Of a DNA stretch of 43,465 bases, positions 9,974 through 35,696 are shown one piece after another. Every line of letters starts with the position of its first letter. The stretch's first letter is position 1. Origin of the DNA: a virus. The stretch is taken from IMG/VR virus record IMGVR_UViG_3300045988_114701, positions 1 through 43,465 of that record; one strand, 5' to 3'. A program made the position numbers and the translations under genes. Below the pieces are notes generated by a model. It saw only the letters and a program-made list of their open reading frames with translations. It was not told where the DNA came from and ran no database searches.

Positions 9974-11809
9974 ATGAGAAAGAGGGATTCCCCGCCGGGG
10001 GATATCAGACAGAGCAAGCCGGAGGAATTCGGTGAACAGCCGCTCTCGCCGGAGGAAAAGGCGCTCGTAGGCAGGGCATACGCGCTGTTTGATTTTTTCA
10101 ACAACGAGCTGCGCGACGCACACAAGGCCATGCGTGCGGCACGCATGATGCGCCAATTGCAGCAGGAGGAGCGGAGCTTGACCGCACCGGTCACCAGCAC
10201 GCTGAACAGCTGCATTGACAACGTCATCGCCGACCAGATTGACAACATGCCGGAAGCGGTCATGGTGCCTGAACGCGAGGAGACGGCGCAGAGCGCGGAA
10301 GAGATGAGCGACGTTGTCAGCTATGCCCTGTATCAGGCGGGATTCAGGGGGACGTATCAGACGCTGATGGAGGACGCGGCGGTCACGGGAACGGGCATCG
10401 CGCAGGTGTTTTGGGACGACGACCTTGAGGACGGCGACGGCATGATCAACGTGCTGGCGTGGCATCCGGAGGACTTCTACCCCGACCCGACGCAGGAAAA
10501 CATTCAGGACGGACGCGCATGCTTCAAGGTGACGCACACGACGGTTGCGTGGGTCGAAGAGCATTACCCGCACGCACGCGGCTATGTACGCGCCGACCCC
10601 AACAATGACGATACCGATTACAGCCTGCAAAACATCGCGGAGGGCGACGAGGGCGTGATGCTGCTGGAATTCTGGTATCGACGGTATGACGCGGACAAGC
10701 GTCGGCACATGGTGCATATGGCGCAGTTGGCGGGTCACGCGCTGCTGTACAGCACGGAGCTTGGCTTCGGCGGCGCGGGAAAGACGGAATACAAAGACGG
10801 CGTATACGCGCACGGCAGGTATCCGTTTGTCTTGTACAAGTACAGGAGCGTATGGCGCAAGCCGTTCGGCACGGGGCTTGTACACGACTACTACGGCACG
10901 CAGAACATGATCGACAGATGTCTCAAGTACATCGACGACAACGCCCGCGAATCGAGCGTGCAGCGGCACTTTATCCGGCGCGGAAGCGGCGTCAATCCGG
11001 AAGACGTTGCGGACATGCGCCGCACCATCATCGAGTGGGAGGGCAACGATATTCGCGAGGCGATTCAGACGGTGCAGGCGGCACCGCTGAACGGGCAGGT
11101 CTATCAGGCAATGAATTACCTCGTGGATTCGATGAAGCAGGACTGCGGACAGAACCAGTTCAGCCGCGGAGAAGGCGGACTTGGCGTTACGGCTGCGGCT
11201 GCCATTCAAGCCCTTCAGGAGGCGGGCGGCAAAACGACCCGCTGGCACACGGAGCAATTCAAGAACGCTTTCCGCGAGATGGTCGAGCAGATGCTCTGGG
11301 TATTGAGCGACTATCTGGACGCAGAGCGCAAATTCAGAATCGTCGGCGGATGGGATTCGAGTGGGAATATGAAGGATAAGCTCGTGCAGCTCATCGCGCC
11401 GATGCGCGACAACGGCAGACTGCCCAAGCCCGCGTACACGGTGCGCGTGCAGGTGCAGAAGAACAACCCCTTGCAGGTACAGGCAGACAACGAATTCCTC
11501 TTGCAGGTTGCGCAAATCTGCGGACAGGCGGGTCAGGCACTGCCGCCCGAATCGGTCATTCGCCTGATGGAGGGATATCGGACAAAGTCGAGCGTGCTGC
11601 GCATGGTCGAGCAGAACAGCGCACAGCAGGCTCTCATTGCTCAGATGCAGCAGCAGATTGAGCTGCTTACCAACCAGAACACGGGCATGCAGGCGGTCAT
11701 CGGCGAGTACAAAAACATGCTCGCGACGCCCGCCCAGCTTGAAGCCAAGCAGCAGGAGGCGGACTATAACCCGATGCTGCAAGCAACCAAGGACGCCGAG
11801 AACGGCTGA
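9974..11809 (+). CDS. Portal protein
   Basis: 611-aa ORF directly after terL and before scaffold and capsid; AGGAGG RBS. Called on size and position. Confidence 0.8.
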   Translation: MRKRDSPPGDIRQSKPEEFGEQPLSPEEKALVGRAYALFDFFNNELRDAHKAMRAARMMRQLQQEERSLTAPVTSTLNSCIDNVIADQIDNMPEAVMVPEREETAQSAEEMSDVVSYALYQAGFRGTYQTLMEDAAVTGTGIAQVFWDDDLEDGDGMINVLAWHPEDFYPDPTQENIQDGRACFKVTHTTVAWVEEHYPHARGYVRADPNNDDTDYSLQNIAEGDEGVMLLEFWYRRYDADKRRHMVHMAQLAGHALLYSTELGFGGAGKTEYKDGVYAHGRYPFVLYKYRSVWRKPFGTGLVHDYYGTQNMIDRCLKYIDDNARESSVQRHFIRRGSGVNPEDVADMRRTIIEWEGNDIREAIQTVQAAPLNGQVYQAMNYLVDSMKQDCGQNQFSRGEGGLGVTAAAAIQALQEAGGKTTRWHTEQFKNAFREMVEQMLWVLSDYLDAERKFRIVGGWDSSGNMKDKLVQLIAPMRDNGRLPKPAYTVRVQVQKNNPLQVQADNEFLLQVAQICGQAGQALPPESVIRLMEGYRTKSSVLRMVEQNSAQQALIAQMQQQIELLTNQNTGMQAVIGEYKNMLATPAQLEAKQQEADYNPMLQATKDAENG

Positions 11810-13916: not shown

Positions 13917-14489
13917 ATGACGCTCAGCCAGATTATCGCGCAAGCCCTGCGGCAGCTGGGGGAAGACCCGCAGGACGTGAGCGAGTACGAGGAAGCATTC
14001 AAGGTATACGCGAACATGGGCTATGACATCGCGGTTCGCGAATATCTCAAGCCCAGAAGGAAAATGTGTCTGGACATCGACGAGAACGGACGTGCGCCGG
14101 TTGTCGGGGTCATCGTAAACAGGGTCATCCGAATGACGGACGAGGACGGGCGGGACGTCGCCTTTGATTTGGCAGGGGACGGAAGAAGCCTTACCGTATG
14201 GCGGGACGACCTGAAGGGAAAGACGCTGCGGGCATTATGCGAGGTCAGCTTTCCGCCGATGGAGGACGGGGAGGACGAGCCGCTGCTTCCGGCATACGCG
14301 CACGCGGCACTGTCGGACTACATCTGTTACCGCCATCTATCCAGCGGCAACCTCGCCAAGCAGAGCCGCGCGCAGTTTTACCAGAACAGCTTCTATCAGG
14401 AGATGAACCGCATTCGTCCGCAGGGCATGGGAAGCGTGACGCGGATGCGCAACCTGTATGAAGCGACGGACGTGAGGTATCGCAGATGA
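13917..14489 (+). CDS. Putative head-tail adaptor/connector protein (190 aa)
   Basis: ORF track 13908..14489; ATG 13917 lies 8 nt after GGAGG. Called on its position after the capsid gene; no specific motif. Confidence 0.45.
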   Translation: MTLSQIIAQALRQLGEDPQDVSEYEEAFKVYANMGYDIAVREYLKPRRKMCLDIDENGRAPVVGVIVNRVIRMTDEDGRDVAFDLAGDGRSLTVWRDDLKGKTLRALCEVSFPPMEDGEDEPLLPAYAHAALSDYICYRHLSSGNLAKQSRAQFYQNSFYQEMNRIRPQGMGSVTRMRNLYEATDVRYRR

Positions 14490-15976
14490 GCATCAGCGAC
14501 AGCGATTACGAAGGAAAATTCACCATCCCCACGCCCAAGGGCATCTATCAGGCGGCGGGCGACACGAACATCAACGCGGACTACGCCTACCGGGCGCAGA
14601 ACATCCGGACGGAGCGCGGGCTTCTGGCATCGGCATACGGCACGAGCCGCGCCTTTCCGTCGCTGGGGGCGCAAATCAAGACGCTGACGCGGTTTTACAG
14701 GCGGTCAAGACCGGACGACGCGGACGTATACGTCGCGGCGGCAGAGGGCGCGATTTACACCTACACGCTGGGAACAGAGGGCTGGGTCAAGCGGTCGGAG
14801 GGATACAAGAGCGACGAATGGAGCAGCGTCACCTATGAAGCGGCGGACGGCGGGGAGACGGCGGACATTCTGATTCTTTCTAACGAAAAGGACGGGATGA
14901 TTGCGGTATACGGCAACGACCTGCGGGTAGAGAAAAAGACGCTGACCATCGGAAACGCATACAGCGAAGTGAAGTTTGCCGTACTGGGGCGGCACGCAGA
15001 GCGCATATGGGGCACGGGCGCGGCGGGCTATCCGGACAGCGTATTCTACTCACGACCCTACGACCCGTTCAACTGGACGGACGTGCCGGAAACGCCCGAG
15101 CTGGGCGGCGGCGTCATCAACCAGCCGACATGGGACGGGGACGCATTCATATCGCTTGAGCCGTTCGGCGGGTATCTGCTGGCGGTCAAGGAGCGGACAA
15201 TCTTCGAGATACGCGGGACAGACCCGAGCAGCTTCACAATTACGGAGGCATACGGCACAGACGGTCCGGTAGAGGAGCGCACAATCTGCACGGACAGGAC
15301 GAGCATGCTGTACCTGTCGCAGAGCGGCATCGGCTTATACGACGGAAGCACGCTGCGGCTGCTCAGCCGGGACGCGCTGTATGAAACGATGCGGATGCGG
15401 ATGGACGGGATGGACGGCGCGGCGCGGGCGTGCATATGCGACCACGTCTACTATCTGGCGATGTGCGTCAGGGAAAGCGAAAACGAGACGCTGACGGAGA
15501 ACAACGCGGTCATCGAATACGACACGGAGCGCGGGACGTTCATGCTGAGGAAGGGCATCCGCGTCAAGGACTTTTTCGCAATAAACGGCAGGGTCTACTA
15601 CACGCAGGCGGAAAGCCCGTACGAGGTCTTGCTCTACAACGCGAGGGAGAACGAGGGAAGCTATCTGGATATGCCGATGGAGTGCATATGGGAAACGCCG
15701 TGGCTGGACTTGGGCAAGGCGTACATGAAGCGGGACTACCTGCTGCGCTTTACGGCGGACGCGGACGAAAACGACCTGCCGCTTGAAATCACGATAAAGA
15801 CCGAGAAGCGGGAAAAGACGCGGACGGTGCTTTTGCAAAGGGACAGGCGGGACTATCGGGTCAAGATTCAGATTGCGGGCGTTCGGATGAAGCTGAGGAT
15901 TCGCAGTCACGCGAAACCCGCGGGATGGCGAATCTACGGCGGGGTTCAGGTGGAATACAGTTTGGACGAGGTGTAA
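14486..15976 (+). CDS. Structural protein of unknown role (496 aa)
   Basis: ORF track; ATGA overlap with the upstream gene; within the late operon. I recognise no family. Confidence 0.6.
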   Translation: MSISDSDYEGKFTIPTPKGIYQAAGDTNINADYAYRAQNIRTERGLLASAYGTSRAFPSLGAQIKTLTRFYRRSRPDDADVYVAAAEGAIYTYTLGTEGWVKRSEGYKSDEWSSVTYEAADGGETADILILSNEKDGMIAVYGNDLRVEKKTLTIGNAYSEVKFAVLGRHAERIWGTGAAGYPDSVFYSRPYDPFNWTDVPETPELGGGVINQPTWDGDAFISLEPFGGYLLAVKERTIFEIRGTDPSSFTITEAYGTDGPVEERTICTDRTSMLYLSQSGIGLYDGSTLRLLSRDALYETMRMRMDGMDGAARACICDHVYYLAMCVRESENETLTENNAVIEYDTERGTFMLRKGIRVKDFFAINGRVYYTQAESPYEVLLYNARENEGSYLDMPMECIWETPWLDLGKAYMKRDYLLRFTADADENDLPLEITIKTEKREKTRTVLLQRDRRDYRVKIQIAGVRMKLRIRSHAKPAGWRIYGGVQVEYSLDEV

Positions 15977-15978: not shown

Positions 15979-16152
15979 ATGGCATTCAAGCAGCCGAGAG
16001 TGCCGCAGGAGAGCGGCAGACTGGCGGAATACGTCAGGAATCTGGGGATGTTTCTGCGCGATTTCTGCATGGCGAGCTGGAACGCGGACAGGATGAAGGA
16101 CGCGGAAATCGAGAAAATCAAAAAGCGGCTGGACGCGCTCGAAGGGAAGTGA
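15979..16152 (+). CDS. Hypothetical small protein (57 aa)
   Basis: ORF track 15925..16152. ATG 15979 lies just after the upstream TAA, with GAGGTG upstream. Confidence 0.5.
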   Translation: MAFKQPRVPQESGRLAEYVRNLGMFLRDFCMASWNADRMKDAEIEKIKKRLDALEGK

Positions 16153-16156
16153 AGAC

Positions 16157-17128
16157 ATGGCAAGAAGCAGCACGACGGAGACCTACCAAAGCTCGAACAG
16201 CACGAGCAAGGAACACAGCAAAACAGACAGCAGGCAGGACACGACCAGCCAAAGCACATCAAACAGCCGGCAGGACAGCACCAGTCAGAGCAGCTCGACC
16301 TCGCAGAGCACGAGCAAGAACGTTCTTGACAAGGAGCTGATGAACCAGATCCTTTCCGGACTGATGGGCACGATGACGGATGAGCAGATTACGCAGTTCG
16401 CGGAGAACCTGCTCAGACCGCAGCTCAACGCCGGACTGGAGGAAGCACAGCAGAACTACGAAACGACAAAACTGAGCAAGGAGCAGGAAATTGAAAACCT
16501 CGCTGCCAACCTGACGCGGAGCATTGACGAGCAGAACGCGGCATACCGCAGGAGCGCGGCGAACGTGGAGACGGCGGCATTGAACCGAGGCATGGGGCGG
16601 AGCAGCTACACCATGCAGACGCTCGCCAATCAGGGAGACGCGCTGGCAAAAGCCGTACAGCAGCTCACGGAGGACAGCGGGCGAAGAAGCCAGCAGATTC
16701 AAAACCAGATTACGCAGGCGGCACAGCAGAACAGCCGGACGCAGGGACGGCTGAACAGCGACTACGCCAGCCAGCTCGCGGCGAAGGTGCAGGAGCTGAA
16801 AGAGAACCAGCGCAAGGAATGGAACAGCAACTATCTGACGGCGATTTCCTCGGCGATGGGACAGCAGACGACGGGAAGCCAGCAGACGGCGGGCAGCCAG
16901 ACGAGCATCGGAAGCCAGCAGACGACGGGAAGCCAACAGACGCTGGGCACGAGCGAAACGACGGGCGAAAGCAGCACGGAGAGCAGCGGATCGAGCGTAT
17001 CGACGACGACGAGCAAGGGAAGCGGAAGCGCAAGCGCAAACAAAAAGACGAATGCGGCGACGACGACGGTGAACGTGCGCCAGGTGAACGGACGATACAG
17101 CCCGAGCAACACGAGCAAGATCAGGTAA
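16157..17128 (+). CDS. Ser/Thr/Gln-rich protein with a helical core (323 aa)
   Basis: ORF track. The N-terminal 55 aa are STSKEHSKTDSRQDTTSQS... and the C-terminal tail has GSQQT[TA] repeats (nt 16861-16950). The central part looks like a coiled coil. Confidence 0.65.
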   Translation: MARSSTTETYQSSNSTSKEHSKTDSRQDTTSQSTSNSRQDSTSQSSSTSQSTSKNVLDKELMNQILSGLMGTMTDEQITQFAENLLRPQLNAGLEEAQQNYETTKLSKEQEIENLAANLTRSIDEQNAAYRRSAANVETAALNRGMGRSSYTMQTLANQGDALAKAVQQLTEDSGRRSQQIQNQITQAAQQNSRTQGRLNSDYASQLAAKVQELKENQRKEWNSNYLTAISSAMGQQTTGSQQTAGSQTSIGSQQTTGSQQTLGTSETTGESSTESSGSSVSTTTSKGSGSASANKKTNAATTTVNVRQVNGRYSPSNTSKIR

Positions 17129-17140
17129 AGGAGAAAGCAG

Positions 17141-20100
17141 ATGACATGGCTTGACGACAAGCGCAAACGCGACGAGGAAGAGGCACAGCGCCAAAGAGCC
17201 GCGCAGGAAGCGGCAAGGGAGCAAAGGACGCAGGAGCAGCGGCTCAAAGCCGAAGAAAGAGCGCACAGAGCGGCGCAGGAGAGCCTGCGCCCTGCCAGCG
17301 AACAGAAGGTGAATACGGCGCCGCTTGTGGTCAACCTGGACACGCAGACCAACCAGAGCGCGGCGAGGATTGCAAGCCGAATCCCGGATGAGACGGAACG
17401 CGACGGCTTTTTGGCGGAATACATCGCCCATGTGAAAAAACAGAGCAGCCCGAACTATCAGAAATACGCGCCGACAATCGGCACGATGCGCGAACTGACG
17501 GACGCGGTTGTGACGGGCGGCGTATATGCCGACACGCGGAAGAAATACGAAAAGCAGCGGCTCAAGGAGATTGAGACGCAGAAGACCGGGAAGGCGGCGA
17601 TGGCGGAGCTGGCCGAAATGCCCTTGATGGGCTTTGACGGGCAGAACATCAACGCCAATACGGCGGACGCGGCGACGGTGATTCGCGGCATCAACTCCAT
17701 TGCGGACGACACGCTGCGCACGCGGGCGGCAAAGGCGTTTAAGACGCTGGCGCAGACCGAGGGTAGCCGATTCTACGGCGAAAACACGGACGGCGTTGGA
17801 ACATTCCTCGAAAGCGCGAACCTGACCCATGACGAATACAGGAACGCGGCGGAGGACTACGCGAGCCGATTCTACGGCGACGGAAAACACGACGAGGAAG
17901 ACGCTACTGCCTACCTTGAAGCGCGGCAGGAGATAGAGGAAAGCGCATACTCCGACTACGCAAAAAGCCAACTGACGGCGGCACTTGACAAGGCATATAC
18001 GGGAATCACGGGCGGGGAAGCGCCTTCCTCCGGCACGGATGACGCACCCGCCGAGGTGACAGACGAGGAACGCACGACCGAGAAAGAACAGAAGAAAGAG
18101 AAGAAACCGGGATTTTGGAGCGGTCTGACCGGGAAAGTGCCTGAGCAGGACGAACAGACGGAAGAAAAGACCGCAAGTCACGCGCTGGAGAAGGCGCAGA
18201 GCCAGATCGTTTCCCAAACGTTGACGGCATCGACCGCGCCGGGTTTCCCGACGACGGCCAAGGGGAAGGACGATAAGAGCGGCAAAGCACCGGAGGTGCA
18301 AGGCCCCGTTCAGATGACCCCGGAGGAGCGGATCATTGCGCAGGGCGGGATGAGCTTTGCGCAATGGCTGGCGGCAACTCCTTCCGTCAGCTCCGCGAAC
18401 GAAACGGGCGCGGGAATTCCCATGCACGAGGCGCAGACCGTCGGCGAGGCGGCGGGCGCACTGCTCAAGGGACAGTATGACCAGATCGAGGGCACGGGCA
18501 AGGATGAGCTGGATCGTATGCTGGCAGAGAGCGGGTACGCACGGCGGATGATCGGCACGCTGACGGAAGCGGATAGCAAGTTCATTCTCAGCGGAAGCGA
18601 CAGAGCCGACAGGGTGCCATACGGGAACATCGCGTCGCAGGGGCAGACGATCAAGACGCTGTATGACGTGATGAGGAGCGATTCCTTCCCGGACGAGCTG
18701 CGGGGCGACGTGATGGCGCAGATGGTCGTATGGGCTGCGCAGGCCGAAGCGATGGAGCAAACGGGGACACTGGGCGGCGACGCGGATCTGCCGCTGATGG
18801 AACGCCTGCTCACCACGGACGAACACGCGATGGACGAGCTGGAAAGCATCTACGCGGCCAGAGACGAGCTGCTAGCCGACAAAGCCGACATGCGCAGGGC
18901 GCAGGAGGAGGCGAGTGCGCAGGCACTCAGCGACGCACGCACGGCGGCACTCAAAGGAACAGCCAGTGAGGAACAGCTCGCGCTGGTGCGCCAGAACGCG
19001 CAGGTGGGGCAGGCCGAGCTGAACGCGGACATGGGCTACGTCGGGCGGCTGGCGGCGGTGGACGACTATTTCAGACCGGGCGCGGGCAAGGGCGCGGTCA
19101 GTCCGTTTGATTCAAGCAGCGTAAAGCTGAACCTCGACGCGCAGGGCGTAATCGACACGGGCGACTATCAGGCACAGCTCAGGGAACAGATGGACGCGCT
19201 GCTCGAAGAAGACACGCAGACGGCTCTTGCGCTGGGACTGACGCTGGACGAATACTACGCCAAGACGGGCGGCGTGGACATGAACGCGCTTTGCGAGCGT
19301 GCTGCCAGCCGCATCAGCCAGCAGGGCGCGGCGATCACCGATGAGGAAATGGCGGCTCTGGACGCTTCCTTTGGTCAGGGCGTGGGCGCGGGCTACATGA
19401 TCGGCGCGGGCATCCGCACGGGCGGCGAGCAGTGGTATCTGGATTTCAAGGACAGCCTGTACGCGGGCTACTCTCAAGGCATGGTGTCTCTCAACGCGGC
19501 GAGCATCCAGAACCGATACCAGAACGAATACGGTGCTTATGGTCGGACGCAGTACCGAAAGGACATCGAGAACGCGCTTAACAGCGGGACACTCGATGAG
19601 AATTACGCCGAGGCACTGAGAAAGGCACTGGTCAGCGCGGCAGACGTATACCAGCTTGGCATTGACCCGATGGATTTTGACGGGGTTTTCCTCAAAAACA
19701 GCGCGGAAATTCGCCGGGACATCGCGACGATGGAAGGATACATGCGAACGAACGCGACGGAGGATGAATTCAAGTGGTTCGGGCGCGTGAAGAGCATGAC
19801 CTACAACACGGTTTCTGCCGGTGTGGCGGCGGGAACGACGATGTTGACGGGAAGTAGTCTGCTTGGCTTTAACATGGGGTACAGCGTCGTCGGGTTCAAG
19901 AACAACTTTGACGAGTATCTGCAAAAGGGGTACAGCATCGATTCCGCCCGATATCTGGGCGCGGTGAACACGGCGCTTGACTGCGCGGTGAACATCGGCA
20001 CGTTCGAGGGCGTGTTGGGCAGGATGACGGGCATGAGCGCACTGACGGAAGCTGCGAGAAGCCAGATCATCCGTAACCCGGCGGGCGCAAGCCGAGGGCT

Positions 20101-23100
20101 GGCGGCGATTGGGGCGTTTAGCAAGGCGTTCGCCCAAAACGAATTTGACGAAGTGGTTCACGACGAATTCTTTGAAGGATTGGCGGCAAACTGGACGGAC
20201 AACGCGCTGGGCGAAATCTTCCGCAAGGTGGACGCGGGCGAGGACATCACGTTCACGGACGGTCTAAACATGTCGCTGAACCTGCTGAATCCCAAAAATC
20301 TTGATGTGATGGGCGCGGCGGAGGGCGTTGTCAGCGGCGCGGTGGAGAACGCCATCGGCGCAGTGGTGTTCTCCCTGTCCGGCGCGGTGGGAAGCGGCGT
20401 GGGTACGCTGCGCGGCGTGAAGGCGGCGCAAGACCTGATGAACGGCAAGCGGACGGACGTAGAAAACGTCATCCTGGACGTGACAAAGACGCTGGGCGAC
20501 GAGCAGGCCTGCGCACTGCTCAATGACTACGCACGGCAGCAGAAGGAAAGCAAAACCGTTGCCGAGGAAATCATCAGCGGGCGGGACGAGAGCGGAAGCG
20601 CGGCGCACGCGGCAAAAGCCAAGCAGCAAGCAGACGAGGCACGCACGCAGGCGGAAGCGGCGCAGACGGCGGCGGACAACAGCCGGGCGCAGTTCACAGA
20701 AGCGGGCGACGCGGTGATGCGCGGCGACCTGACGCAGCAGAAGGGAATGACCGAAGCACGCGTGCGCATGGGCGAAAGCCAGAAAACCGCGAACGAACAG
20801 GGCGATGTCGCCGCACGCAGAACGGACGAAATGCAGCAGGCGGCGGCTGAGCGGCTGACAGAGGCGAGACAGGCGGGCAGGAAGGCCGTCATCTCGGAGG
20901 ACGCGGCGGCGCGGGAAGCCATGCTTGACGACCGGGAAGCGCGGATGCAGGCTATTGATAACGAGATCGCACAGCTCGACGCGCAGGAGCAGGCAGCGGA
21001 GGAAGAATTCTACGCGGCGGCGCAGAGCTATACGGAAGCGGAATCCATGGGAATGGACGCGGAAACGCTTGACCAGCTCGACGCACGGATGACCGAGATC
21101 GGCGAGCGGATGGCGGCACTTTCCGACCGCCGGGAAGCACTGAAAAACCCGGAGGCCTACGAGGCACGCCGAAAGGCGGAAGCTCAGGAGCAGCAGGCAC
21201 AGGAAGAATATCAAAGGCAGCTCGAGAGGGAGCAGACACAGAGCGAGATGGACGAGATTGCCCCGGTGGTGATGGACATCCGCAACAAGCGCATCTGGCT
21301 GAACGAACAGCAGATTGCCGAGGTGCTGCACACGACGGGACTGCGGACAATCACTCAGGTGAATCGCCAATACGGCACACAGTTCCGCGTCAACCGCAAG
21401 AGCGCGGACGTTGACCTTGACAGCGGCTTTTTCCGCGAGCTGGCGGCGCAAATCCCCGGACGGATGGACGAGGAGAGCACGCACCCGGAGACGGAAATTC
21501 TGAATCTGCTGGACAGGAACGGCGTGCTGAAAGGCGAGCTGGGCGGGATGGAAGCCAGCATGGGCGCAGTTGGCGCGGAAGACTATCTGAAAGCGGACGT
21601 TTCGCGCGGCAACCTTGACCCGGTGACGCAGAAGCTCGCCAGCAACCTGAAACAGAAGACGGGGCTTGAGCTGATCGTCATGCCGCTGGCAGACAATGTT
21701 CGCGGATTCTACGACCGAGAAAACGGGCGGCTGATTCTTTCAAACCGAATCGGCGCGGGCGAGCAGATGCGACAGGTGGTCATGCACGAGCTGACGCACT
21801 ACATCGAGAGTACGAAGAATTATGAAGCCTACGAAAAGGCGGCACTGGAAGCCGCCTATCGCGGCGATACAAAGGCGATGGACAGAGACGCGGCGGAAAT
21901 CCGCAAGACCTATGAGGATGCGGGTCTCCCCTGCGACGTGAACAAGGAACTGACCGCTGCGGCGACGGAAAAGCTGATGACCTCCCTTGGCGCATGGGGC
22001 AGGACGGGCAGCGAGACGCTTGTGTATGACTTGCTTGGCGCGAAGCAGTCCTTCCCAATTCGCGTCTACAACAAGCTGACGCAGTTTTTAGCCCGACGCA
22101 AAGCCCAAAGAGCAGGCGGCGCGGAGGCAGACCACTATGCGGCACTGGTCAGGGCGCGGGATGCGCTCAGGCAGGCCATTCTTGAAGCCGGGACATGGAA
22201 AAAGGGCATGGGCGGAGAGGATGCGACCATCGAGCTATTCGGAAAGACCGCGCCCGTAGAGCGGGAGGTCACGCGAGGACAACAGACGGAGATGGAATAT
22301 GCCGTCGCCCCGCGACAATTCGGCAACCAGACGGCTCAGGACCTCGACACGCTGACAGACCGGACAAAGGATTTCCTGCGCGGAAGCCAGTACGAAACCG
22401 TGACCAACCGGGAGCAGGTGCAGCGGGCAAACGACGATATCAACGCACGCGGCATTGACGCGGTGGTGAACGACCTGCTGTCGCGGGACAGATGGACGGC
22501 AGACGACCACGCGGCGGCGGCTGTGGCGTTCATCCGTGCGGAAAACGAGGGACTGAATACAACGGCGTGGGCGATTGCCTCTGCCTATGACGAGCAGGGC
22601 ACTAATGCCGGTCAGGCATTGCAGGCAAGACAGGTCATTAAAAAGCTGACTGCTGCGGGCGCACTGGTAGAGGCGACGAAGAAAGCCGACCACGCCAACG
22701 CGAAAAAGGGACTGGTGGAAGGCGATATCCCCGTCGGCAACCAAGCACCTGTGAAGGGATGGCGCGACAGACAGCAGAGAAGCAAGGAAGGCACTGAGAC
22801 GAAACAGAACGTCAGCCCGACGGGCGAGTTCGACCCGGACAACCCGTTCAACAAAGGCAGGACTTCCGTTTTGCCGCAGGATGCGGTGTCAGGCGCGGGC
22901 GGCTCGGCGGGCGACGCGGTGCAGGGCAGTTTCGTTGAAAAAACGCTGCCGCCGGTACTCGAAAAGGTCTACACTGCGGCGGAGCTGATTCAGCGTCAGA
23001 TCGACAAGCTGCCTTCCGACGTGAGCTATGACAACCCGTGGAACGTGCCGCTTGAAGGCTGGAAGATGGAACTCATCGACCAATACAGACTAGGCGGAAT

Positions 23101-25276
23101 AAAGCTGGTCGGCGACACATACAGCCACGCGACCGTGAAAGAACGCATGCTGTCGGCTATTCTGGCAACGGACAACAACGTGCGCGGCGACGGGCTTTTG
23201 ACACTCTGCCAGCAGCTCGAAGCGATGAAACAGGGGCTTGCGGTGGTGACGGAAGCCGACCTGAACTACATCGCGGGGCAGATGAGCACATTCCTCTATG
23301 CCGAGGGCGCAGACCTTGAGGGAATGCCGGTGACGACAGAGGGCAAAACGGCGTTGCAGCGCGTCTATAACGCGCAGGCCAACATCGTACAAAACAGCGT
23401 GATGGAAAAGGTCAATGCCTTTGGATATACCAACATGCTATCCGGCACGAAGACGTGGAGCAAGAACATTTTCAGCAACGTTCTTATTCGTCCGCTTGAG
23501 CTGGCGAGCGAGAAGATCGGCGGCGCGATTGAAGGGGCGTTTATCACCAAGCGAACGGGCAACCGAACGACGGACGCGCCGAACCGTGCGGAGCGGGCGG
23601 CAGGACGGGATGCGTTTGTCGGCGAGATCGGACAGACGATGGTGGATTATTTCGTGACGCATGCGGACACCGGACACGGAAGCGGCTTTGACCTGAACCA
23701 CAACAACCGCACCTTCAACAACAAATTTCTGCAAACCTACAAGAACATCGTGGATTTTGCCATGCAGGTAGGCGACCGTCCGTTCTGGGAGCAATGCTAC
23801 GCGGAGGAGCTTGCCGTCATCAAGCGTCTGGGGACGAAGATCCCCGATACGCAGCGCGTAGACGGACGCGAGGTCAAAGTCCTGCGCGACATGACGTTTG
23901 AGGAAATGAAGACGGAAGCGGCGGTTCGTGCGACGGAGCGCGTTTTTCAGGAGGACAACCGCATCGTCAGTGCCATCAACAAGGCGCGGCGAGAAAGCCC
24001 GATGATCGATTTCGCGATTACGAGCATGATGCCCTTCCTCAAAACGCCGACAAACGTCGCAAGCCGCATGATGCAGTACAGCCCCATCGGACTGGCGCGG
24101 GCAATCATCCAATACGGTCTATGGGACGGCAAGCGCAACGGCGGCACGAACTTTGACCAGCGCAAGTTCGTCATGAACCTCGGACGCGGACTGACGGGTA
24201 CTGGCGCGGCAATCGCCGGCGCACTGCTCGCCAGCCTCGGCGCGATTCAGCCCGGACGCGAGGACGAGGAAGACAAAAAGCTGGGCGTAATCCGCAAGGC
24301 GCAGGGCAGGAGTTACAGCACATATTTCAAGCTGGGCGACTGGGAAATCCCGCTTGACTTTGCGCAGCCGGCGAGTGGTCCTCTGTACATCGGCGCGAAA
24401 ACCGCATGGGCGCTTGAAGAGATGGGCGACGACGTGAACGTTCCGGCACTGATCGGAACGTTGCTCTACGGTTCGACGCTCGAAACGGGCAACCAGTTGT
24501 TTGACAACTCGTTCCTTTCCGGGTTCAGCGCGTTGTTCAGCGGCTACAACGACGTGGAAGGCATTATGAGCAACATCGCGGAGAACATTGCGGAGAATCA
24601 GGCGAGCCGCCTGACCCCTTCGGCGGTGCGTGCGCTCGCCAAAGCGACAGACCCCTATGTGCGGGACGTGTACAGCCAAAATGCGGTGAAGCAATTCCTT
24701 AACCGTCAAATTGTTCAGAACTGGCCGCTTCTGCGACAGACGCTGCCGGTCAAGACGGACATCACGGGCGACGCAACGCTGCAAAACGGATATTACAACT
24801 GGGGACAGGAAAACCAAAACGCGGCGCTGCATTTCCTTAACGCTTTTGTGACCCCGTGGACGACGCTGGGCGAAAAGAATGACGCGGCACTTGACGCGCT
24901 GATCGACCTGAGCTATCGGACAGGGGAAACGAGCTTCCTGCCGGGCGAGATGGTCAGCGGAAGCAAGTACGAGGTGAGCATCACCAAGACACTGGCCAAG
25001 GAACTCAGGGTTAACAAGGTTGGGTTTGGTCAGTACGAGGGATTCAAGATTCGCCTGACGGACGAAGAAAAGCGCTGGGCGAACAGCACCTACGCGGACA
25101 CGCTGTTCAACGGAAACGGCCGAGACGTGATCGGTCTGCGCACGATGATGAACGGGAGCAGATGGGAACGAATGAGCGACGAAGAGAGGATAGAAGCGGT
25201 TCGGAGCATGCAGAAAACGGCTAAAAATCAGGTATTGACCGAGCTGGTCAGGCGAAAGAAGGAGGAACGCGGATGA
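17141..25276 (+). CDS. Giant virion-module protein (2,711 aa) with an HExxH metallopeptidase-like motif, long coiled coil and hydrophobic Gly/Ala segments
   Basis: A single uninterrupted ORF covering 18.7% of the genome, with an AAAGGAG RBS. VVMHELTHYIE places HELTH at nt 21785-21799. An E/Q/A/R coiled coil spans about nt 20600-21250. Hydrophobic segments lie near nt 19811-19897, 20312-20410 and 24173-24255. Confidence 0.8.
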   Translation: MTWLDDKRKRDEEEAQRQRAAQEAAREQRTQEQRLKAEERAHRAAQESLRPASEQKVNTAPLVVNLDTQTNQSAARIASRIPDETERDGFLAEYIAHVKKQSSPNYQKYAPTIGTMRELTDAVVTGGVYADTRKKYEKQRLKEIETQKTGKAAMAELAEMPLMGFDGQNINANTADAATVIRGINSIADDTLRTRAAKAFKTLAQTEGSRFYGENTDGVGTFLESANLTHDEYRNAAEDYASRFYGDGKHDEEDATAYLEARQEIEESAYSDYAKSQLTAALDKAYTGITGGEAPSSGTDDAPAEVTDEERTTEKEQKKEKKPGFWSGLTGKVPEQDEQTEEKTASHALEKAQSQIVSQTLTASTAPGFPTTAKGKDDKSGKAPEVQGPVQMTPEERIIAQGGMSFAQWLAATPSVSSANETGAGIPMHEAQTVGEAAGALLKGQYDQIEGTGKDELDRMLAESGYARRMIGTLTEADSKFILSGSDRADRVPYGNIASQGQTIKTLYDVMRSDSFPDELRGDVMAQMVVWAAQAEAMEQTGTLGGDADLPLMERLLTTDEHAMDELESIYAARDELLADKADMRRAQEEASAQALSDARTAALKGTASEEQLALVRQNAQVGQAELNADMGYVGRLAAVDDYFRPGAGKGAVSPFDSSSVKLNLDAQGVIDTGDYQAQLREQMDALLEEDTQTALALGLTLDEYYAKTGGVDMNALCERAASRISQQGAAITDEEMAALDASFGQGVGAGYMIGAGIRTGGEQWYLDFKDSLYAGYSQGMVSLNAASIQNRYQNEYGAYGRTQYRKDIENALNSGTLDENYAEALRKALVSAADVYQLGIDPMDFDGVFLKNSAEIRRDIATMEGYMRTNATEDEFKWFGRVKSMTYNTVSAGVAAGTTMLTGSSLLGFNMGYSVVGFKNNFDEYLQKGYSIDSARYLGAVNTALDCAVNIGTFEGVLGRMTGMSALTEAARSQIIRNPAGASRGLAAIGAFSKAFAQNEFDEVVHDEFFEGLAANWTDNALGEIFRKVDAGEDITFTDGLNMSLNLLNPKNLDVMGAAEGVVSGAVENAIGAVVFSLSGAVGSGVGTLRGVKAAQDLMNGKRTDVENVILDVTKTLGDEQACALLNDYARQQKESKTVAEEIISGRDESGSAAHAAKAKQQADEARTQAEAAQTAADNSRAQFTEAGDAVMRGDLTQQKGMTEARVRMGESQKTANEQGDVAARRTDEMQQAAAERLTEARQAGRKAVISEDAAAREAMLDDREARMQAIDNEIAQLDAQEQAAEEEFYAAAQSYTEAESMGMDAETLDQLDARMTEIGERMAALSDRREALKNPEAYEARRKAEAQEQQAQEEYQRQLEREQTQSEMDEIAPVVMDIRNKRIWLNEQQIAEVLHTTGLRTITQVNRQYGTQFRVNRKSADVDLDSGFFRELAAQIPGRMDEESTHPETEILNLLDRNGVLKGELGGMEASMGAVGAEDYLKADVSRGNLDPVTQKLASNLKQKTGLELIVMPLADNVRGFYDRENGRLILSNRIGAGEQMRQVVMHELTHYIESTKNYEAYEKAALEAAYRGDTKAMDRDAAEIRKTYEDAGLPCDVNKELTAAATEKLMTSLGAWGRTGSETLVYDLLGAKQSFPIRVYNKLTQFLARRKAQRAGGAEADHYAALVRARDALRQAILEAGTWKKGMGGEDATIELFGKTAPVEREVTRGQQTEMEYAVAPRQFGNQTAQDLDTLTDRTKDFLRGSQYETVTNREQVQRANDDINARGIDAVVNDLLSRDRWTADDHAAAAVAFIRAENEGLNTTAWAIASAYDEQGTNAGQALQARQVIKKLTAAGALVEATKKADHANAKKGLVEGDIPVGNQAPVKGWRDRQQRSKEGTETKQNVSPTGEFDPDNPFNKGRTSVLPQDAVSGAGGSAGDAVQGSFVEKTLPPVLEKVYTAAELIQRQIDKLPSDVSYDNPWNVPLEGWKMELIDQYRLGGIKLVGDTYSHATVKERMLSAILATDNNVRGDGLLTLCQQLEAMKQGLAVVTEADLNYIAGQMSTFLYAEGADLEGMPVTTEGKTALQRVYNAQANIVQNSVMEKVNAFGYTNMLSGTKTWSKNIFSNVLIRPLELASEKIGGAIEGAFITKRTGNRTTDAPNRAERAAGRDAFVGEIGQTMVDYFVTHADTGHGSGFDLNHNNRTFNNKFLQTYKNIVDFAMQVGDRPFWEQCYAEELAVIKRLGTKIPDTQRVDGREVKVLRDMTFEEMKTEAAVRATERVFQEDNRIVSAINKARRESPMIDFAITSMMPFLKTPTNVASRMMQYSPIGLARAIIQYGLWDGKRNGGTNFDQRKFVMNLGRGLTGTGAAIAGALLASLGAIQPGREDEEDKKLGVIRKAQGRSYSTYFKLGDWEIPLDFAQPASGPLYIGAKTAWALEEMGDDVNVPALIGTLLYGSTLETGNQLFDNSFLSGFSALFSGYNDVEGIMSNIAENIAENQASRLTPSAVRALAKATDPYVRDVYSQNAVKQFLNRQIVQNWPLLRQTLPVKTDITGDATLQNGYYNWGQENQNAALHFLNAFVTPWTTLGEKNDAALDALIDLSYRTGETSFLPGEMVSGSKYEVSITKTLAKELRVNKVGFGQYEGFKIRLTDEEKRWANSTYADTLFNGNGRDVIGLRTMMNGSRWERMSDEERIEAVRSMQKTAKNQVLTELVRRKKEERG

Positions 25277-26169
25277 TTCACGCGAGTTTTGACGACAGAA
25301 GCCACAAGAGCGCGGCGATTGCGGGCATTTACCAATACGACACGGGACAGCGGCTAAAGATGCACGGGCTGCCGTCGCCGCGGGAGCTGGCGGAGAGGGA
25401 CGACTTTCTATCCGGCGACGCGGTGACGGTGCAGGCGCAGTACGGGTTTGTCGGGGACAGCCAGACGGAAACGCGGATGGCGAGCTACGACGAGGGAAGC
25501 GGATGCTGGACGGCGGACATTCCGGACATATACCTGACCCGAAGCAGCACGGTGAAGGTGTTCGTATACGTCGGCTACGGCGCGGCGGAGGGCGCGGGAC
25601 GGTCAAAGACCTGCTACGAGGGGAGCTTCACGCCCGTCAGCCGCCCCGCGCCGGGGACGCAGGTCACGCCGGAGCAGACGAACGCATGGGACGCGCTGGT
25701 TGCGGAAGTGAACCTGACGCTGGCGAAGATGAACACGGCGGTATCGGGCGCGAACGCGGCGGCGGAAACCGCAGGCACGGCGGCGAAAGCAGCGGACAAG
25801 GCGGCGGGCAGCGCGGAGAGCGCGGCGAAAACCGCAGGCGACGCGGCGGGGAGCGCAAACAGCGCGGCGGAAGCGGCAAATCAGGCGGCAAAAGCGGCGA
25901 ACACAGCGGCGGCAGGTGCGAACACACAGGCGGAACACCTGCAAAGCATGGTCGTACAGGCGGCGACGCGGGAATACGGCAGCGGAAGCACGGCGAGCCT
26001 GACGGACGACGGAGAGAAGAAAGTCCTTTCGCTGGGGCTTGAGCGGGGCATGCCGGGCAGGGACGGCGCAAAGGGCGAGAGAGGCGAAAAGGGCGACAAG
26101 GGCGACACGGGGACGGCGGGCGTGACCTTTCAGCTTGTCGGCACGGTGCTGACCATCACGACGGTATGA
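25273..26169 (+). CDS. Tail fibre/baseplate-like protein with an Ala-rich coiled stalk and collagen-like G-X-Y run
   Basis: ATGA overlap with the giant ORF. Contains AETAGTAAKAADKAAGSAESAAKTAGDAAGSANSAAEAANQAAKAAN. GMPGRDGAKGERGEKGDKGDTGTAG is encoded at nt 26047-26121. Confidence 0.65.
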   Translation: MIHASFDDRSHKSAAIAGIYQYDTGQRLKMHGLPSPRELAERDDFLSGDAVTVQAQYGFVGDSQTETRMASYDEGSGCWTADIPDIYLTRSSTVKVFVYVGYGAAEGAGRSKTCYEGSFTPVSRPAPGTQVTPEQTNAWDALVAEVNLTLAKMNTAVSGANAAAETAGTAAKAADKAAGSAESAAKTAGDAAGSANSAAEAANQAAKAANTAAAGANTQAEHLQSMVVQAATREYGSGSTASLTDDGEKKVLSLGLERGMPGRDGAKGERGEKGDKGDTGTAGVTFQLVGTVLTITTV

Positions 26170-26179
26170 GGGTAAAGGC

Positions 26180-27085
26180 ATGGCAAAGAAAATTCCTGCA
26201 TTCAGCTACACGGGCGCATACCGGACGCAGAGCGACGGGAGATACTGGTACATTCTGCTGCTGACAAGCGGCACGCTGACCTTTCAGTACGCCAAGAGCG
26301 GCGTGGACGTGGGCTGCGTGGGCGGCGGCGGGTCGAGCGCGTGCCACCTGCAAACGGCGAACACGGCGGGCGGAAGCGGCGGAGGCGGCGGGTACATCGC
26401 AACCGGCACGGCGGCAATCGCGGCGGGGCAGGGCTACGCGGTGAGCATCGGAAATGGCGGGGCTGTTCCGGCGGTATGGCTGGCGGGCAGCAACGGAGGG
26501 GCGACGTCTGCCTTCGGCATTACCGCACAGGGCGGCAAGGGCGCGGGCGCGCTGGGCTGGAAGGACAGCGGCACGCCGGGCACGGGCACTGGCGCAGGCG
26601 GAACAGGCGGCAGAGACACGCACATCGCGGGCACGCAGGGCGAAAACGGGCAAGACCTCTTCGGGCTGGGGCGATACGGCGCGGGAGGCGGCGGCGGAGG
26701 CGGCGGCTGGGCTACGGCAGGCGGAAGCGGCGGCGCAGACGGAGGCGGCGCGGGCGGCAAAGGCGGCGCGCCGGGCACGAACGGCGCAGACGGCACGGCG
26801 GGAGCGGCGAACACGGGCGGCGGCGCAGGCGGTCCGGGCGGCGGATATGTGGACGAGGACAGCCGCTACAACAGCAAGGGCGGTCAGGCGGCGGCAGGCG
26901 GAAGCGGCGTCGTCATTCTGCGGGGAACGCAGGACGATTTGATTCCGGTGGTTTTTAACGGAACACAGCTGAGTGAGCTGTACTTTAACGGCGTAAAGGT
27001 GACGAGCCTCATTTACAACGGGGCAAGGCTGTTTATACGGGAGGTGAAACGATGTTTTGCGCATCAAGCGGTCAAATTGTGCTGA
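26180..27085 (+). CDS. Glycine-rich domain protein (phage fibre-associated type)
   Basis: VGCVGGGGSS..GGSGGGGGY..VSIGNGG..SAFG..AQGGKGAG..GGGGGGGGW..GGSGVVILR matches the common phage glycine-rich domain pattern. Confidence 0.7.
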   Translation: MAKKIPAFSYTGAYRTQSDGRYWYILLLTSGTLTFQYAKSGVDVGCVGGGGSSACHLQTANTAGGSGGGGGYIATGTAAIAAGQGYAVSIGNGGAVPAVWLAGSNGGATSAFGITAQGGKGAGALGWKDSGTPGTGTGAGGTGGRDTHIAGTQGENGQDLFGLGRYGAGGGGGGGGWATAGGSGGADGGGAGGKGGAPGTNGADGTAGAANTGGGAGGPGGGYVDEDSRYNSKGGQAAAGGSGVVILRGTQDDLIPVVFNGTQLSELYFNGVKVTSLIYNGARLFIREVKRCFAHQAVKLC

Positions 27086-27420
27086 CGGCGGGGGACACGG
27101 GCGTGATCGGGTTCGAGGCGGCGGAGGGCGGCTACATCCCGACGGAGAACGACCGCGCAATCTTTACCGTTCGGGACAAGGTCGGCGGGCGCAGGCTGAT
27201 TGAAAAGACGGTTCAGCCGGACGCGCAGGGCGTGACGCGCGTTCCCTTCATGGTGGAGGACACGGCAAAGCTCAAGCCGCGCGGCTATGTTTGGGACATC
27301 CGCTTCGCGCTGGAGGCGAAAGAGGACGGGAGCGGGAACGTGACGGAGTACAGGGAAATGATTACGCCGATGGAGCCGGGCGTTCTATGGGTGCTTCCGG
27401 CGATAGGAGAGAGCAGATGA
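27052..27420 (+). CDS. Hypothetical tail-module protein (122 aa)
   Basis: ORF track; GGGAGGTG RBS 5 nt before ATG 27052. It overlaps the 3-prime end of the upstream gene by 34 nt. Confidence 0.6.
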   Translation: MFCASSGQIVLTAGDTGVIGFEAAEGGYIPTENDRAIFTVRDKVGGRRLIEKTVQPDAQGVTRVPFMVEDTAKLKPRGYVWDIRFALEAKEDGSGNVTEYREMITPMEPGVLWVLPAIGESR

Positions 27421-34597: not shown

Positions 34598-34618
34598 GTC
34601 ATAATTCGCGGCATAATT
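34598..34618. repeat. attP arm repeat, copy 2: GTCATAATTCGCGGCATAATT
   Basis: See copy 1. This copy overlaps the int stop codon at 34617-34619. Confidence 0.8.
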
Positions 34619-35696
34619 ATTTGTACTGGCATATTTTGCCGCCGAGCAGCGCGGCGTTGTGAGACGCAATCGCGTCGGCTACGGCATCGCGCTTTTTGTT
34701 CATCGTGTGCTGATAGACACGATTGAGCATATCGAGCGTCGCGTGTCCCATGCGCTCCTGAGCGTACTTTGGCGGGACGTTCAGGGCAGCCATGACGGAT
34801 GCGGCATAGTGGCGCAGATCGTGAAAGCGACCGGGGAGATTGAGCTTTTCACAGAGACGCATGTAAGAATCTGTGATGCTGGCGGGCGTCATGCCAGTGA
34901 TGGTCTGCGGCGGCTGGTGACCGAAATTGCGGACAGCGGAGACGACGAGCGCATCCAGACCACGCAGGACGCGGTTACCGCTGCGGGATTTGGGGGGCTT
35001 GAGCTGGTAGTCGCCGCATTCATCCATGGCGAGGGATTTGTTGATGGTGACCGTTCCTGCCTCGAAATCGAAGTCATCCATCGTCAGGGCGGCGATCTCG
35101 CCGCGGCGCAGACCCAGCGTTGCGGCAAGGACGACCGCGACGTAAAGGTTGGTGTTGTGTGCGCGGAGATAAAACAGCGCACGCTGCACGTCTTCATCCT
35201 GCGGGATGGTCATCTCTTTGCGGTCGGGTTCGGGCAGGATCAACCCTTGCGTCGGCGGCTCGATTCCGGCGTGCTTCACGGACGCGGCGAGAAAGCCGAG
35301 CTTATTGCGGACGGTTTTCGGGGTTGCGCCGGATCGCGTCCAGTCATTGACCACAGATTGCAGTTCAGCGCGTGAGATTTTGGCGATGGGCTTTGATTCG
35401 AGAGCTTCAAAGCCGTTGCGCCGCATGGCAGCATAGCCGCGGATGGTGGACGGAGAGCGACCGGCGGAGCGGCAGGTATCGAGGTATTTATCCATCGCCT
35501 GAGCCAGCGTCACACGCCCCGCCAGATTCGCGGAGAGGGCGTTCTCGCGGTTTTCGTCGAAGTCGGCAATCATTCGCCTGACCTCGGCCTTCGTCGCGGC
35601 AGAAAGGGAGATATAACGATATCCGCCGGACGGGAGACGCTCGCCGGTGGAGACGCGGGCGCGGTATCCGGTCACGGTTTTTTCAATTTTCGGCAT
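34617..35696 (-). CDS. int: Tyrosine integrase
   Basis: LGLRRGEIAAL (Arg I), FHDLRHYAAS (H-x-x-R), GHATLDMLNRVYQH (catalytic Tyr), and an N-terminal SAM-like arm/core-binding region. It lies adjacent to the tRNA fragment. Confidence 0.93.
   Translation of the reverse strand: MPKIEKTVTGYRARVSTGERLPSGGYRYISLSAATKAEVRRMIADFDENRENALSANLAGRVTLAQAMDKYLDTCRSAGRSPSTIRGYAAMRRNGFEALESKPIAKISRAELQSVVNDWTRSGATPKTVRNKLGFLAASVKHAGIEPPTQGLILPEPDRKEMTIPQDEDVQRALFYLRAHNTNLYVAVVLAATLGLRRGEIAALTMDDFDFEAGTVTINKSLAMDECGDYQLKPPKSRSGNRVLRGLDALVVSAVRNFGHQPPQTITGMTPASITDSYMRLCEKLNLPGRFHDLRHYAASVMAALNVPPKYAQERMGHATLDMLNRVYQHTMNKKRDAVADAIASHNAALLGGKICQYK

Follow-up and report, generated by a model that had tools for sequence, protein, structure and literature searches.

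A giant multi-module virion-locus protein, probably an ejection polyprotein, in a temperate podovirus-type phage linked to gut Clostridia

Most of what is understood of podovirus ejection proteins comes from T7 and P22, phages of Gram-negative hosts. The gp16 protein of T7 is soluble, with its hydrophobic segments folded away before ejection, and its basic C-terminus is required for infectivity (PMC8954989). Giant polyvalent virion proteins are also known as a class; a zincin metallopeptidase (MPTase) is their hub domain and has been proposed to be an autoprocessing enzyme (Iyer et al. 2017, PMC5512222). This paper uses neither of the terms 'gp16' and 'internal virion', and within the library searched, a link between 'ejection protein' and 'polyvalent protein' was found only in a preprint on Shiga toxin (Stx) phage phi24B. 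According to this preprint, phi24B gp47 (2,811 aa) carries LPD5, LPD1 and LPD38 domains and, near residue 1,560, a metallopeptidase; mass spectrometry detected it in virions, it is invisible in cryo-electron microscopy, and it is proposed to be an ejection protein. Likewise already known are the 8-kb open reading frames (ORFs) of phi1 and phi4, temperate podovirus-like prophages of ~41 kb in the gut Clostridia member Clostridium clostridioforme LM41: each takes up almost 20% of its genome, lies at the 3' end and resembles a Podoviridae protein with LPD3; transmission electron microscopy showed podovirus-like particles, and the ORF was reported without domain dissection (PMC11318856). Here, we describe a giant ORF at 17141..25276 (+ strand) of the IMG/VR virus record IMGVR_UViG_3300045988_114701, the whole 43,465-bp stretch of which is referred to below as the window.

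In our opinion, the product of the giant ORF is probably an ejection (pilot) polyprotein located inside the capsid of a temperate podovirus that infects gut Clostridia. An earlier reading made from the letters alone (the sequence-only reading) had suggested a polyvalent or ejection protein; this suggestion is supported by the ART-PolyVal, MuF_C, LPD3, PBECR3 and PBECR5 domains of the relatives, by the zincin domain and by the homology of the C-terminal module. The advance concerns annotation and mechanism rather than a new category of protein. The homology of the unannotated core of this family to the internal virion proteins that occupy the gp16 position in marine phages appears to be new, as do a defined cargo slot, its junction motifs and the occurrence of such a protein in a phage of monoderm gut Clostridia.

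The giant gene and its C-terminal core

The giant ORF starts with an ATG at 17141, ends with a TGA at 25274-25276 and encodes a protein of 2,711 aa (~298 kDa). Its 8,136 nt form one frame without interruption and make up 18.7% of the window, exactly as had been read from the letters. An identical 2,711-aa product was called on 7 contigs of 20-50 kb each, and the best 120 database matches were all full-length (2,690-2,918 aa, 87-100% identity), many of them being located on contigs of 42-44.5 kb. Near copies of the gene were found in uncultured Clostridiales and in Clostridia metagenome-assembled genomes (MAGs) from the human gut; one close homologue in nr bears the name 'PolyVal Metallopeptidase'. 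The ratio of nonsynonymous to synonymous substitution rates (dN/dS), calculated against a ~80%-identical Clostridia MAG copy, was 0.285 overall and 0.17-0.44 across all six regions. The giant ORF is a real, selected and conserved gene; an assembly artefact is rejected because of the 7 identical contigs, the full-length relatives and dN/dS values below 0.45 everywhere. The scan of viral contigs with the single sequence returned close relatives only, the whole ORF had no match in the GenBank phage collection (megablast and tblastn), and nothing was found in a PDB sequence search with the whole protein.

The order of modules was determined with 150 representatives of 50%-identity clusters by BLASTP and iterated hidden Markov models (HMMs) built for the family, and was as follows: N1, N2, charged helix/coiled coil, zincin peptidase, cargo slot, D and C. 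A search with residues 1512-2711 gave 4,038 clusters (50% identity) at E <= 1e-3; in the best 150 of these clusters, the matched proteins were 900-4,245 aa long, and residues ~1940-2710 aligned at their C-terminus or close to it. Among 154 family sequences, the C module was present in 153, the D domain in 121, the HExxH domain in 79, N2 in 50 and N1 in 43, and D almost always accompanied C. Judged by these counts, D and C are the family core, the remaining modules being an elaboration of a large subfamily of 2,500-4,250 aa. This core, ~990 aa long in the window protein, was also encountered as a stand-alone protein: P0163 (960 aa) is a complete gene from two independent assemblies, and P0240 (1,128 aa) is encoded in a prophage with a T7-like terminase, a P22 portal, a fibre and a lysozyme, and with no long-tail genes.

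The D domain (aa 1725-1855; 22313..22705, +) is a small bundle of helices in the AlphaFold2 model. It is followed by a Gly/Pro/Ser/Lys-rich linker of low model confidence (aa 1856-1935; 22706..22945, +), with a predicted local distance difference test score (pLDDT) below 50 at model residues 173-217, and then by the C module (aa 1936-2711; 22946..25273, +), which ends with the basic tail RRKKEERG. A basic C-terminus is enriched across the family. The sequence-only reading had recognised no motif in a C-terminal region of about 900 aa, and the C module indeed has no relative in Pfam (0/35 and 0/14 members, 49 scanned) or, by its profile, among PDB sequences; it is not, however, without kin in phages. 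A tblastn search with P0240 retrieved annotated internal virion proteins of S-TIP28, P60, S-CBP42, NATL2A-133, pelagiphage HTVC011P and several roseophages (CRP). The target gene of S-TIP28 is located after those for tail tubular proteins A and B and an 859-aa gp15-position gene, and before a fibre gene. The C-module HMM, built from 153 sequences, matched S-TIP28 gp48 with E = 6e-24 over 470 positions (hhalign 98.5%) and P-SSP7 gp16 with E = 3e-13 (hhalign 94.5%). Seventeen of 35 family members, the window protein not among them, matched phrog_6651 'internal virion protein' (best E = 2.8e-20). By profile comparison, the C module is a homologue of the internal virion protein that marine T7-like podoviruses have at the gp16 position.

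Domain-wise modelling followed by Foldseek, which had been proposed together with the earlier reading, agreed with these results. The AlphaFold2 model of residues 1715-2711 was nearly all alpha (pLDDT 80.4, predicted template modelling score 0.72). In BFVD it matched the C-halves of gut-virome 'large polyvalent' proteins with E from 1e-26 to 1e-17 and template modelling (TM) scores of about 0.5, these being relatives of less than 20% identity after one 50%-identical relative was excluded. It also matched internal virion proteins of cyanophages and a pelagiphage, namely those of pelagiphage Eyrgjafa, S-CBP2, S-CBP3, S-RIP1 and NATL2A-133 (E from 6e-13 to 4e-6, TM 0.28-0.44). The C module contains a conserved Gly-rich hydrophobic helix (aa 2350-2369; 24188..24247, +) with a Kyte-Doolittle value of 1.64 and pLDDT of 81-93, which is buried in the modelled fold; its glycines are near-invariant, and the helix also aligns in S-TIP28 gp48.

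A copy of the giant gene on the Clostridia MAG contig CAKURR010000013.1 (L003:9940-14865) was considered as a natural split gene (688 aa and 935 aa) and rejected. The genuine start of this copy (MTWLEDKKKRDEEEA) lies in a different frame, frameshifts are present, early N1 has become joined to the peptidase through a deletion, and positions 12052-12054 hold a TAG in frame. MuF_C and ART-PolyVal cargo is still encoded. This copy appears to be a prophage in decay or the product of poor assembly, not a natural split gene.

Peptidase, cargo slot and junction motifs

The sole HExxH of the protein, HELTH (aa 1549-1553; 21785..21799, +), is a predicted zinc-binding and catalytic motif and lies in a zincin-like metallopeptidase domain at residues 1470-1690 (21548..22210, +), in agreement with the HExxH module noticed earlier. 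In an alignment of 19 diverse members, the Glu (E1550) and the second His (H1553) of this motif were invariant and the first His (H1549) near-invariant; E1556, three residues past the motif, Y1561 and E1603, ~50 residues downstream, were invariant as well. E1603 is the residue expected to serve as third ligand in a gluzincin. Pfam DUF6782 (putative metallopeptidase) was matched by 11 of the 19 members (best E = 1.8e-6), with weaker matches to M78/IrrE, M76 and SprT. The peptidase of the window protein itself had DUF6782 as its best match, under the family threshold; the whole giant protein weakly matched the metallo-protease family phrog_87. The best PDB match of the peptidase profile was IrrE (E = 0.13), covering a strand and the HExxH helix. 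The peptidase region gave no match to Pfam MPTase-PolyVal, and lysozyme, NlpC/P60, M23 and amidase domains were not found in a Pfam scan of the window protein. On the conservation of these residues, the HExxH region is a conserved zincin-like peptidase.

A cargo slot is located directly after the peptidase (aa 1700-1722; 22238..22306, +), as recognised from the inserts of relatives and from motif statistics; in the window protein it is empty and ends with MEYAV (aa 1718-1722). The relatives bear inserts of 190 to ~1,370 aa at this place: ~190 aa with LPD3 in the P0063 group and P0122, a ~200-aa unknown domain in P0026 and in the MAG copy L002, RNase-like MuF_C together with the ADP-ribosyltransferase ART-PolyVal in P0125, ~830 aa in P0131 and ~1,370 aa in P0137. 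Nuclease domains PBECR3 and PBECR5 were found elsewhere in the family, above Pfam thresholds like ART-PolyVal, MuF_C and LPD3. No effector domain was recognised by Pfam in the window copy; it is therefore the chassis of a polyvalent family and not a multi-effector protein. The inserts of P0131 (aa ~2055-2890) and P0137 (aa ~1925-3300) share a Cys-containing cargo domain of ~800 aa, which is strongly conserved and has the motifs VPCPVCYVFSRWMGVP, RTTRGAGMGKAI and GGQRFQSTSDFRPEWGLDYM; in a Pfam scan of an alignment including both proteins, P0137 had a weak LPD3 match as the only one shown.

On either side of the inserts, a short motif is repeated: P0026 has ...TEMEYAI, the insert and then DVEYAVAPRQFG, where the window protein has TEMEYAVAPRQFG. 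The pattern [QER][YF][SA][LIVM] occurs only once in the window protein, at residue 1719. In 68 representatives, 65 of its 130 occurrences fell into peptidase-end or D-start windows, with 4.7 expected. A related motif, [QE]AS[LIVM]G, is located at the upstream edge of the peptidase, where the window protein has MEASM (aa 1470-1474; 21548..21562, +), a candidate cleavage site supported by motif counts. Counted from HExxH, the motifs are concentrated at -100..0 and +100..+200 residues, and in 72 relatives such motifs cluster 0-100 aa before HExxH. The combined pattern ME[AY][SA][MV] has exactly two matches in the 2,711 aa, MEASM at residue 1470 and MEYAV at residue 1718. These two motifs bracket the peptidase and are candidate self-cleavage sites.

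N-terminal half and gene neighbourhood

The protein begins with a charged K/R/E/Q helix (aa 1-60; 17141..17320, +), modelled by AlphaFold2 as a helix at residues 2-48. The fractions of Lys plus Arg and of Asp plus Glu are both 0.19 in residues 1-100, so that the description of this end as highly charged holds. In the model of residues 1-1150 (pLDDT 71.5), N1 is helical and predicted with confidence, N2 is large and helical, and the linker between them is disordered. N1 (aa 65-295; 17333..18025, +) is an all-alpha domain with pLDDT of about 85-94; the linker (aa 298-396; 18032..18328, +) is acidic and Pro-rich with pLDDT < 50, and the close relative P0028 has a ~150-aa insertion within it. N2 (aa 430-1100; 18428..20440, +) is a large all-alpha region supported by the model and by family HMMs. 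All three Gly/Ala-rich hydrophobic segments pointed out by the sequence-only reading are present, but only two of them are transmembrane-like in hydrophobicity: the segment at residues 1058-1088 (20312..20404, +; Kyte-Doolittle 1.59 at aa 1072, with low model confidence at aa 1051-1067) and the helix of the C module (1.64, at aa 2351), whereas that at residues 890-918 (19808..19894, +) is weakly hydrophobic, with values below 1.3. The coiled coil of ~220 aa proposed in the same reading was confirmed in part: within a charged Ala/Glu/Gln/Arg-rich helical stretch (aa 1140-1375; 20558..21265, +), recognised from composition and a heptad test, heptad periodicity was significant at residues 1260-1375 (z = 4.5) but not at residues 1150-1260 (z = -0.4).

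Foldseek of the N-terminal model against BFVD returned only a member of its own family (E = 1.5e-67), the rest having E >= 0.016 and TM <= 0.12. The HMMs of N1, N2 and the coiled coil did not match gp14 or gp15 of T7, gp47 of S-TIP28, gp15 of P-SSP7 or gp20 of Page; the idea of a gp14/gp15/gp16 gene fusion, with a gp14- or gp15-like N-terminal half, received no homology support from them. The N-terminal half evolves faster than the remainder, with 52-54% amino acid identity to the MAG copy vs 78-81% elsewhere.

Nearly all of the large ORFs scanned in the window are on the + strand. The gene order starts with a helix-turn-helix-type small terminase, the large terminase, a P22-type portal (9974..11809, +; PF16510 at 86 bits, phrog_156), a probable scaffold and the major capsid protein (phrog_1357). 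They are followed, ahead of the giant ORF, by a protein with a weak match to the SU10 adaptor, a 496-aa virion protein (14486..15976, +; phrog_511, phrog_3287), for which nozzle or internal virion protein are possible roles, and a 323-aa DUF7934 protein (16157..17128, +). The DUF7934 gene also precedes the decayed L003 copy. The 496-aa protein had no match in PDB or, by tblastn, in the GenBank phages, and a PDB sequence search with two upstream neighbours gave nothing. Between the genes of the 496-aa protein and the DUF7934 protein (15979-16152, +), a 57-aa gene was called in an identical contig (L017:1839-2012). Directly downstream of the giant ORF are two fibre genes assigned by family matches (25273..27085, +), one collagen-like and one Gly-rich with a Gly_rich_2 domain, and then more fibre and amidase genes. 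The giant gene is thus situated between head and fibre genes, as had been read from the letters.

The capsid protein had 76 matching records, among which Streptomyces phages were the largest group; among cultured phages, Page and Pony, podophages of Bacillus megaterium, are its nearest relatives (37% identity), with Paenibacillus phages next. Families of tube, sheath, tape-measure, chaperone and baseplate-hub proteins had no match among the ~30 larger ORFs scanned, which bears out the absence of tube genes reported earlier. The loci of two more distant relatives (the close-relative MAG L002 and the prophage L014) had podovirus-type gene sets, and tube or chaperone genes were not seen in them. 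A tyrosine integrase (34617..35696, -; phrog_1, E = 1e-52) is the sole clear minus-strand gene, and the phage is considered temperate because of its presence. By its gene content, the genome is that of a temperate podovirus-type phage. DNA methyltransferase genes were found at both ends of the window (294-1820 and 42725-43153, +; phrog_116 and phrog_111, respectively); the window probably opens inside a methylase-rich early region of a genome of ~43.5 kb that is circularly permuted or prophage-derived.

Base composition varies along the window. The two downstream fibre genes lie in a G+C-rich island (25001-28000; 0.66-0.67 vs 0.55-0.62 in the flanks), where the GC skew of the window also has its maximum, and the integrase lies in a stretch of lower G+C content (0.49-0.55). 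An AT skew peak of 0.44-0.51, far above the remaining window, was found at 16001-19000, where the DUF7934 gene lies and the giant ORF begins; it is explained by codons rich in purines and A in the charged N-terminal regions.

Proposed mechanism, alternatives and known systems

If the giant protein is an ejection polyprotein, it would be packaged in the head and expelled via the portal and the short tail ahead of the DNA. The D and C part would then refold, expose the Gly-rich hydrophobic helix (aa 2350-2369) and help to build a conduit through the wall and membrane. Length and membrane contact, for which T7 has separate gp14/gp15-type proteins, may come from the helical N-terminal half, which has a hydrophobic segment and a long helix of its own. 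Cuts by the peptidase at MEASM (aa 1470) and MEYAV (aa 1718) would yield products of about 160, 28 and 110 kDa; the predicted ~110-kDa product matches the size of stand-alone D+C proteins and of the marine gp16-position proteins. In relatives, such cleavage would release the slot cargo into the host. Only as a tentative and rather doubtful extension do we propose an 'ejectosome polyprotein' that processes itself and has a bay for plug-in cargo: in a podovirus of monoderm gut Clostridia, the entire DNA conduit through the envelope would come from one gene, and the zincin of its product would cut short [Q/E]-[F/Y/A]-[S/A]-[L/I/V/M] junctions. The protease, a gp16-like module and, in relatives, exchangeable toxins (ADP-ribosyltransferase, RNase) would thereby be set free in the host.

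Several points weigh against an ejection polyprotein. Packaging, cleavage and channel formation are all steps that we infer. The function of the N-terminal half, the first 1,100 aa of which have no relative outside the family, is a guess from context. Residues 1715-2711 of the window protein matched 0 PHROG families at E <= 0.001, phrog_6651 included; the link from the window to the marine proteins is transitive via family profiles, with one additional BLASTP match (E = 1.5e-4 over 62 aa), and the role of P-SSP7 gp16 is itself annotated as 'assigned by synteny and size'. We failed to find sequence or profile similarity between the family and gp16, gp15 or gp14 of Escherichia coli phage T7 (hmmsearch; hhalign vs gp16 0.2%). 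S-TIP28 gp48 and T7 gp16 also gave E > 4 in BLASTP; the search for T7 gp16 homologues returned only sequences of >= 94% identity, from which a diverse profile was not buildable. Foldseek of the C-terminal model against PDB found nothing at E <= 0.001 (best E = 0.67); as the solved gp16 models are partial and conformation-specific, this negative carries little weight. The junction motif was defined on the same sequences that were later used to test it, and it overlaps conserved domain termini (the 'RQF' start of D). Finally, a precedent in monoderm hosts is lacking: according to a recent review (PMC8954989), the phi29-like podoviruses of Gram-positive bacteria were not found to have ejection proteins.

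These points leave room for other explanations, among which the strongest is an injected anti-defence or host-takeover polyvalent protein acting in the manner of DarB/Alt, with no conduit role and with the C module as a packaging or portal-targeting anchor. The effector-type domains of the relatives (ART-PolyVal, MuF_C/PBECR, LPD3) and the place of MPTase as a polyvalent hub domain (PMC5512222) fit it well, and the position of the C module at or near the C-terminus in the best 150 representatives is where an anchor might be expected. Nevertheless, we regard it as rather improbable: the window copy and many relatives have no recognisable effector, yet the ~2,700-aa chassis is under purifying selection; T7-like phages free of effector fusions have homologues of the C module at the gp16 position; and the Gly-rich hydrophobic helix and basic C-terminus suit a membrane-active ejection protein. 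An external tail part, i.e., a central needle, giant fibre or wall-degrading tail enzyme with the HExxH domain as a peptidoglycan endopeptidase, is suggested by the adjoining fibre genes and by the peptidoglycan degradation that the phi24B authors proposed for their metallopeptidase. It is very unlikely, with both AlphaFold2 models being nearly all alpha and showing no beta-helix, beta-prism or coiled trimer-fibre features, with none of the searched wall-lytic domains in the protein, and with the weak affinities of the peptidase pointing to protein-cleaving zincins (IrrE, SprT, DUF6782).

The reading as an extreme tape measure, which would set the length of a long tail and which the sequence-only reading had already doubted, is effectively refuted. 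The size, helicity and Gly/Ala-rich hydrophobic segments of the protein are superficially like those of tape measures, and a few Foldseek rows name such proteins; these rows are insignificant (E 0.04-3, TM <= 0.12), and no tape-measure family of Pfam or PHROG matched the giant protein. The genome has a P22-type portal and a capsid whose nearest cultured relatives belong to podophages, tube, sheath, chaperone and baseplate-hub families are unmatched among the larger ORFs scanned, and the C module has homologues among the internal virion proteins of podoviruses. The homologues are not ordinary tape measures accompanied by tube and chaperone genes either, those of L002 and L014 lying in podovirus-type loci. 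As to an assembly artefact or a decaying pseudo-ORF, the visibly decayed L003 relative (frameshifts, deletion, in-frame TAG) demonstrates that such copies occur; for the window this explanation, and with it the assembly chimera contemplated earlier, is refuted by the 7 contigs with an identical protein, the 120 full-length matches and the dN/dS of 0.17-0.44 per region.

The ejection polyprotein therefore remains our preferred explanation. Independently of it, a very large unannotated family, abundant in gut viromes, is now tied to marine gp16-position internal virion proteins, and on the same scaffold exchangeable effector cargo is carried beside a built-in protease. If true, our interpretation would account for the passage of short-tailed phages of gut Clostridia through a thick wall, would supply testable cleavage sites and would reveal a modular route of phage protein injection, which bears on host takeover, anti-defence and protein-delivery engineering. 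If the ejectosome-polyprotein version were also true, a family of more than 4,000 clusters would be a widespread natural protein-injection chassis; podovirus ejection proteins have not been described for hosts of the monoderm class to which gut Clostridia belong.

Compared with known systems, the window protein resembles the large polyvalent proteins (Iyer et al. 2017, PMC5512222) in being giant and multi-module, in its virion-gene context and in its central zincin MPTase. It consists of at least six modules, of which the peptidase alone is a recognised enzymatic domain; the effector domains ART-PolyVal, MuF_C, PBECR3/5 and LPD3, characteristic of polyvalent proteins, are present in its relatives of like architecture and in none of the modules of the window copy. 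The virion RNA polymerase of phage N4 (~3,500 aa) is a giant protein inside a podovirus virion; it is packaged and injected and has an MPTase region (PMC5512222); unlike in that enzyme, an RNA polymerase domain or fold was not found in the window protein by Pfam, PDB sequence or Foldseek searches. Bacillus phage Page encodes a giant hypothetical protein of 1,679 aa, gp20 (L005:19786-24825), at the end of its structural module and just before the holin. Comparisons of gp20 with the window ORF by BLASTP, HMM and hhalign were all negative, and it may be an analogous but unrelated giant virion protein. By their published description (size, genome share and host group), the 8-kb ORFs of the LM41 prophages are like the window ORF, from which they differ in being placed at the 3' end.

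T7 gp16, internal virion protein D of the gp14/15/16 ejectosome, is a likely functional analogue, being large and helical and encoded just before the fibre gene. The window protein is also helical, with hydrophobic segments, a basic C-terminus and a gene just before the fibres; these features are generic and do not prove membership in the T7 gp16 group. The homologues of T7 gp16 carry the lytic transglycosylase domain SLT (PF01464), which Pfam did not detect in the window protein, and T7 has separate gp14- and gp15-like genes, whereas none were recognised upstream of the giant ORF. By analogy, the closest experimentally supported counterpart is phi24B gp47: both are podovirus proteins of near-identical size, and their peptidase regions are marginally similar (E = 1e-3). 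The deposited ORF vb_24B_48 (L015:29149-37572) encodes 2,807 aa, and its HEIIH at residue 1564 is placed nearly as is the HExxH at residue 1549 of 2,711 in the window protein. In contrast, gp47 has LPD domains and a Gram-negative host, and the N1, N2, D and C modules have no detectable homology to it; the phi24B protein was thus ruled out as sharing the C module.

The marine gp16-position proteins (P-SSP7 gp16, S-TIP28 gp48 and those of P60, S-CBP2/3 and HTVC011P; phrog_6651) are related to the window protein by homology with its C module over ~470 aa. Common to them are the motifs LLNPxTxxRNxxGN, GDRPF and PFxKTPxN and the Gly-rich hydrophobic helix; they are also all-alpha and encoded just before tail fibre genes. 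They differ in being stand-alone proteins of 900-1,250 aa, encoded after separate gp14-/gp15-like genes by lytic phages of Gram-negative hosts, whereas the C module of the window protein forms the last third of a 2,711-aa peptidase fusion with a family-specific N-terminal half, encoded by a temperate, Clostridia-linked phage.

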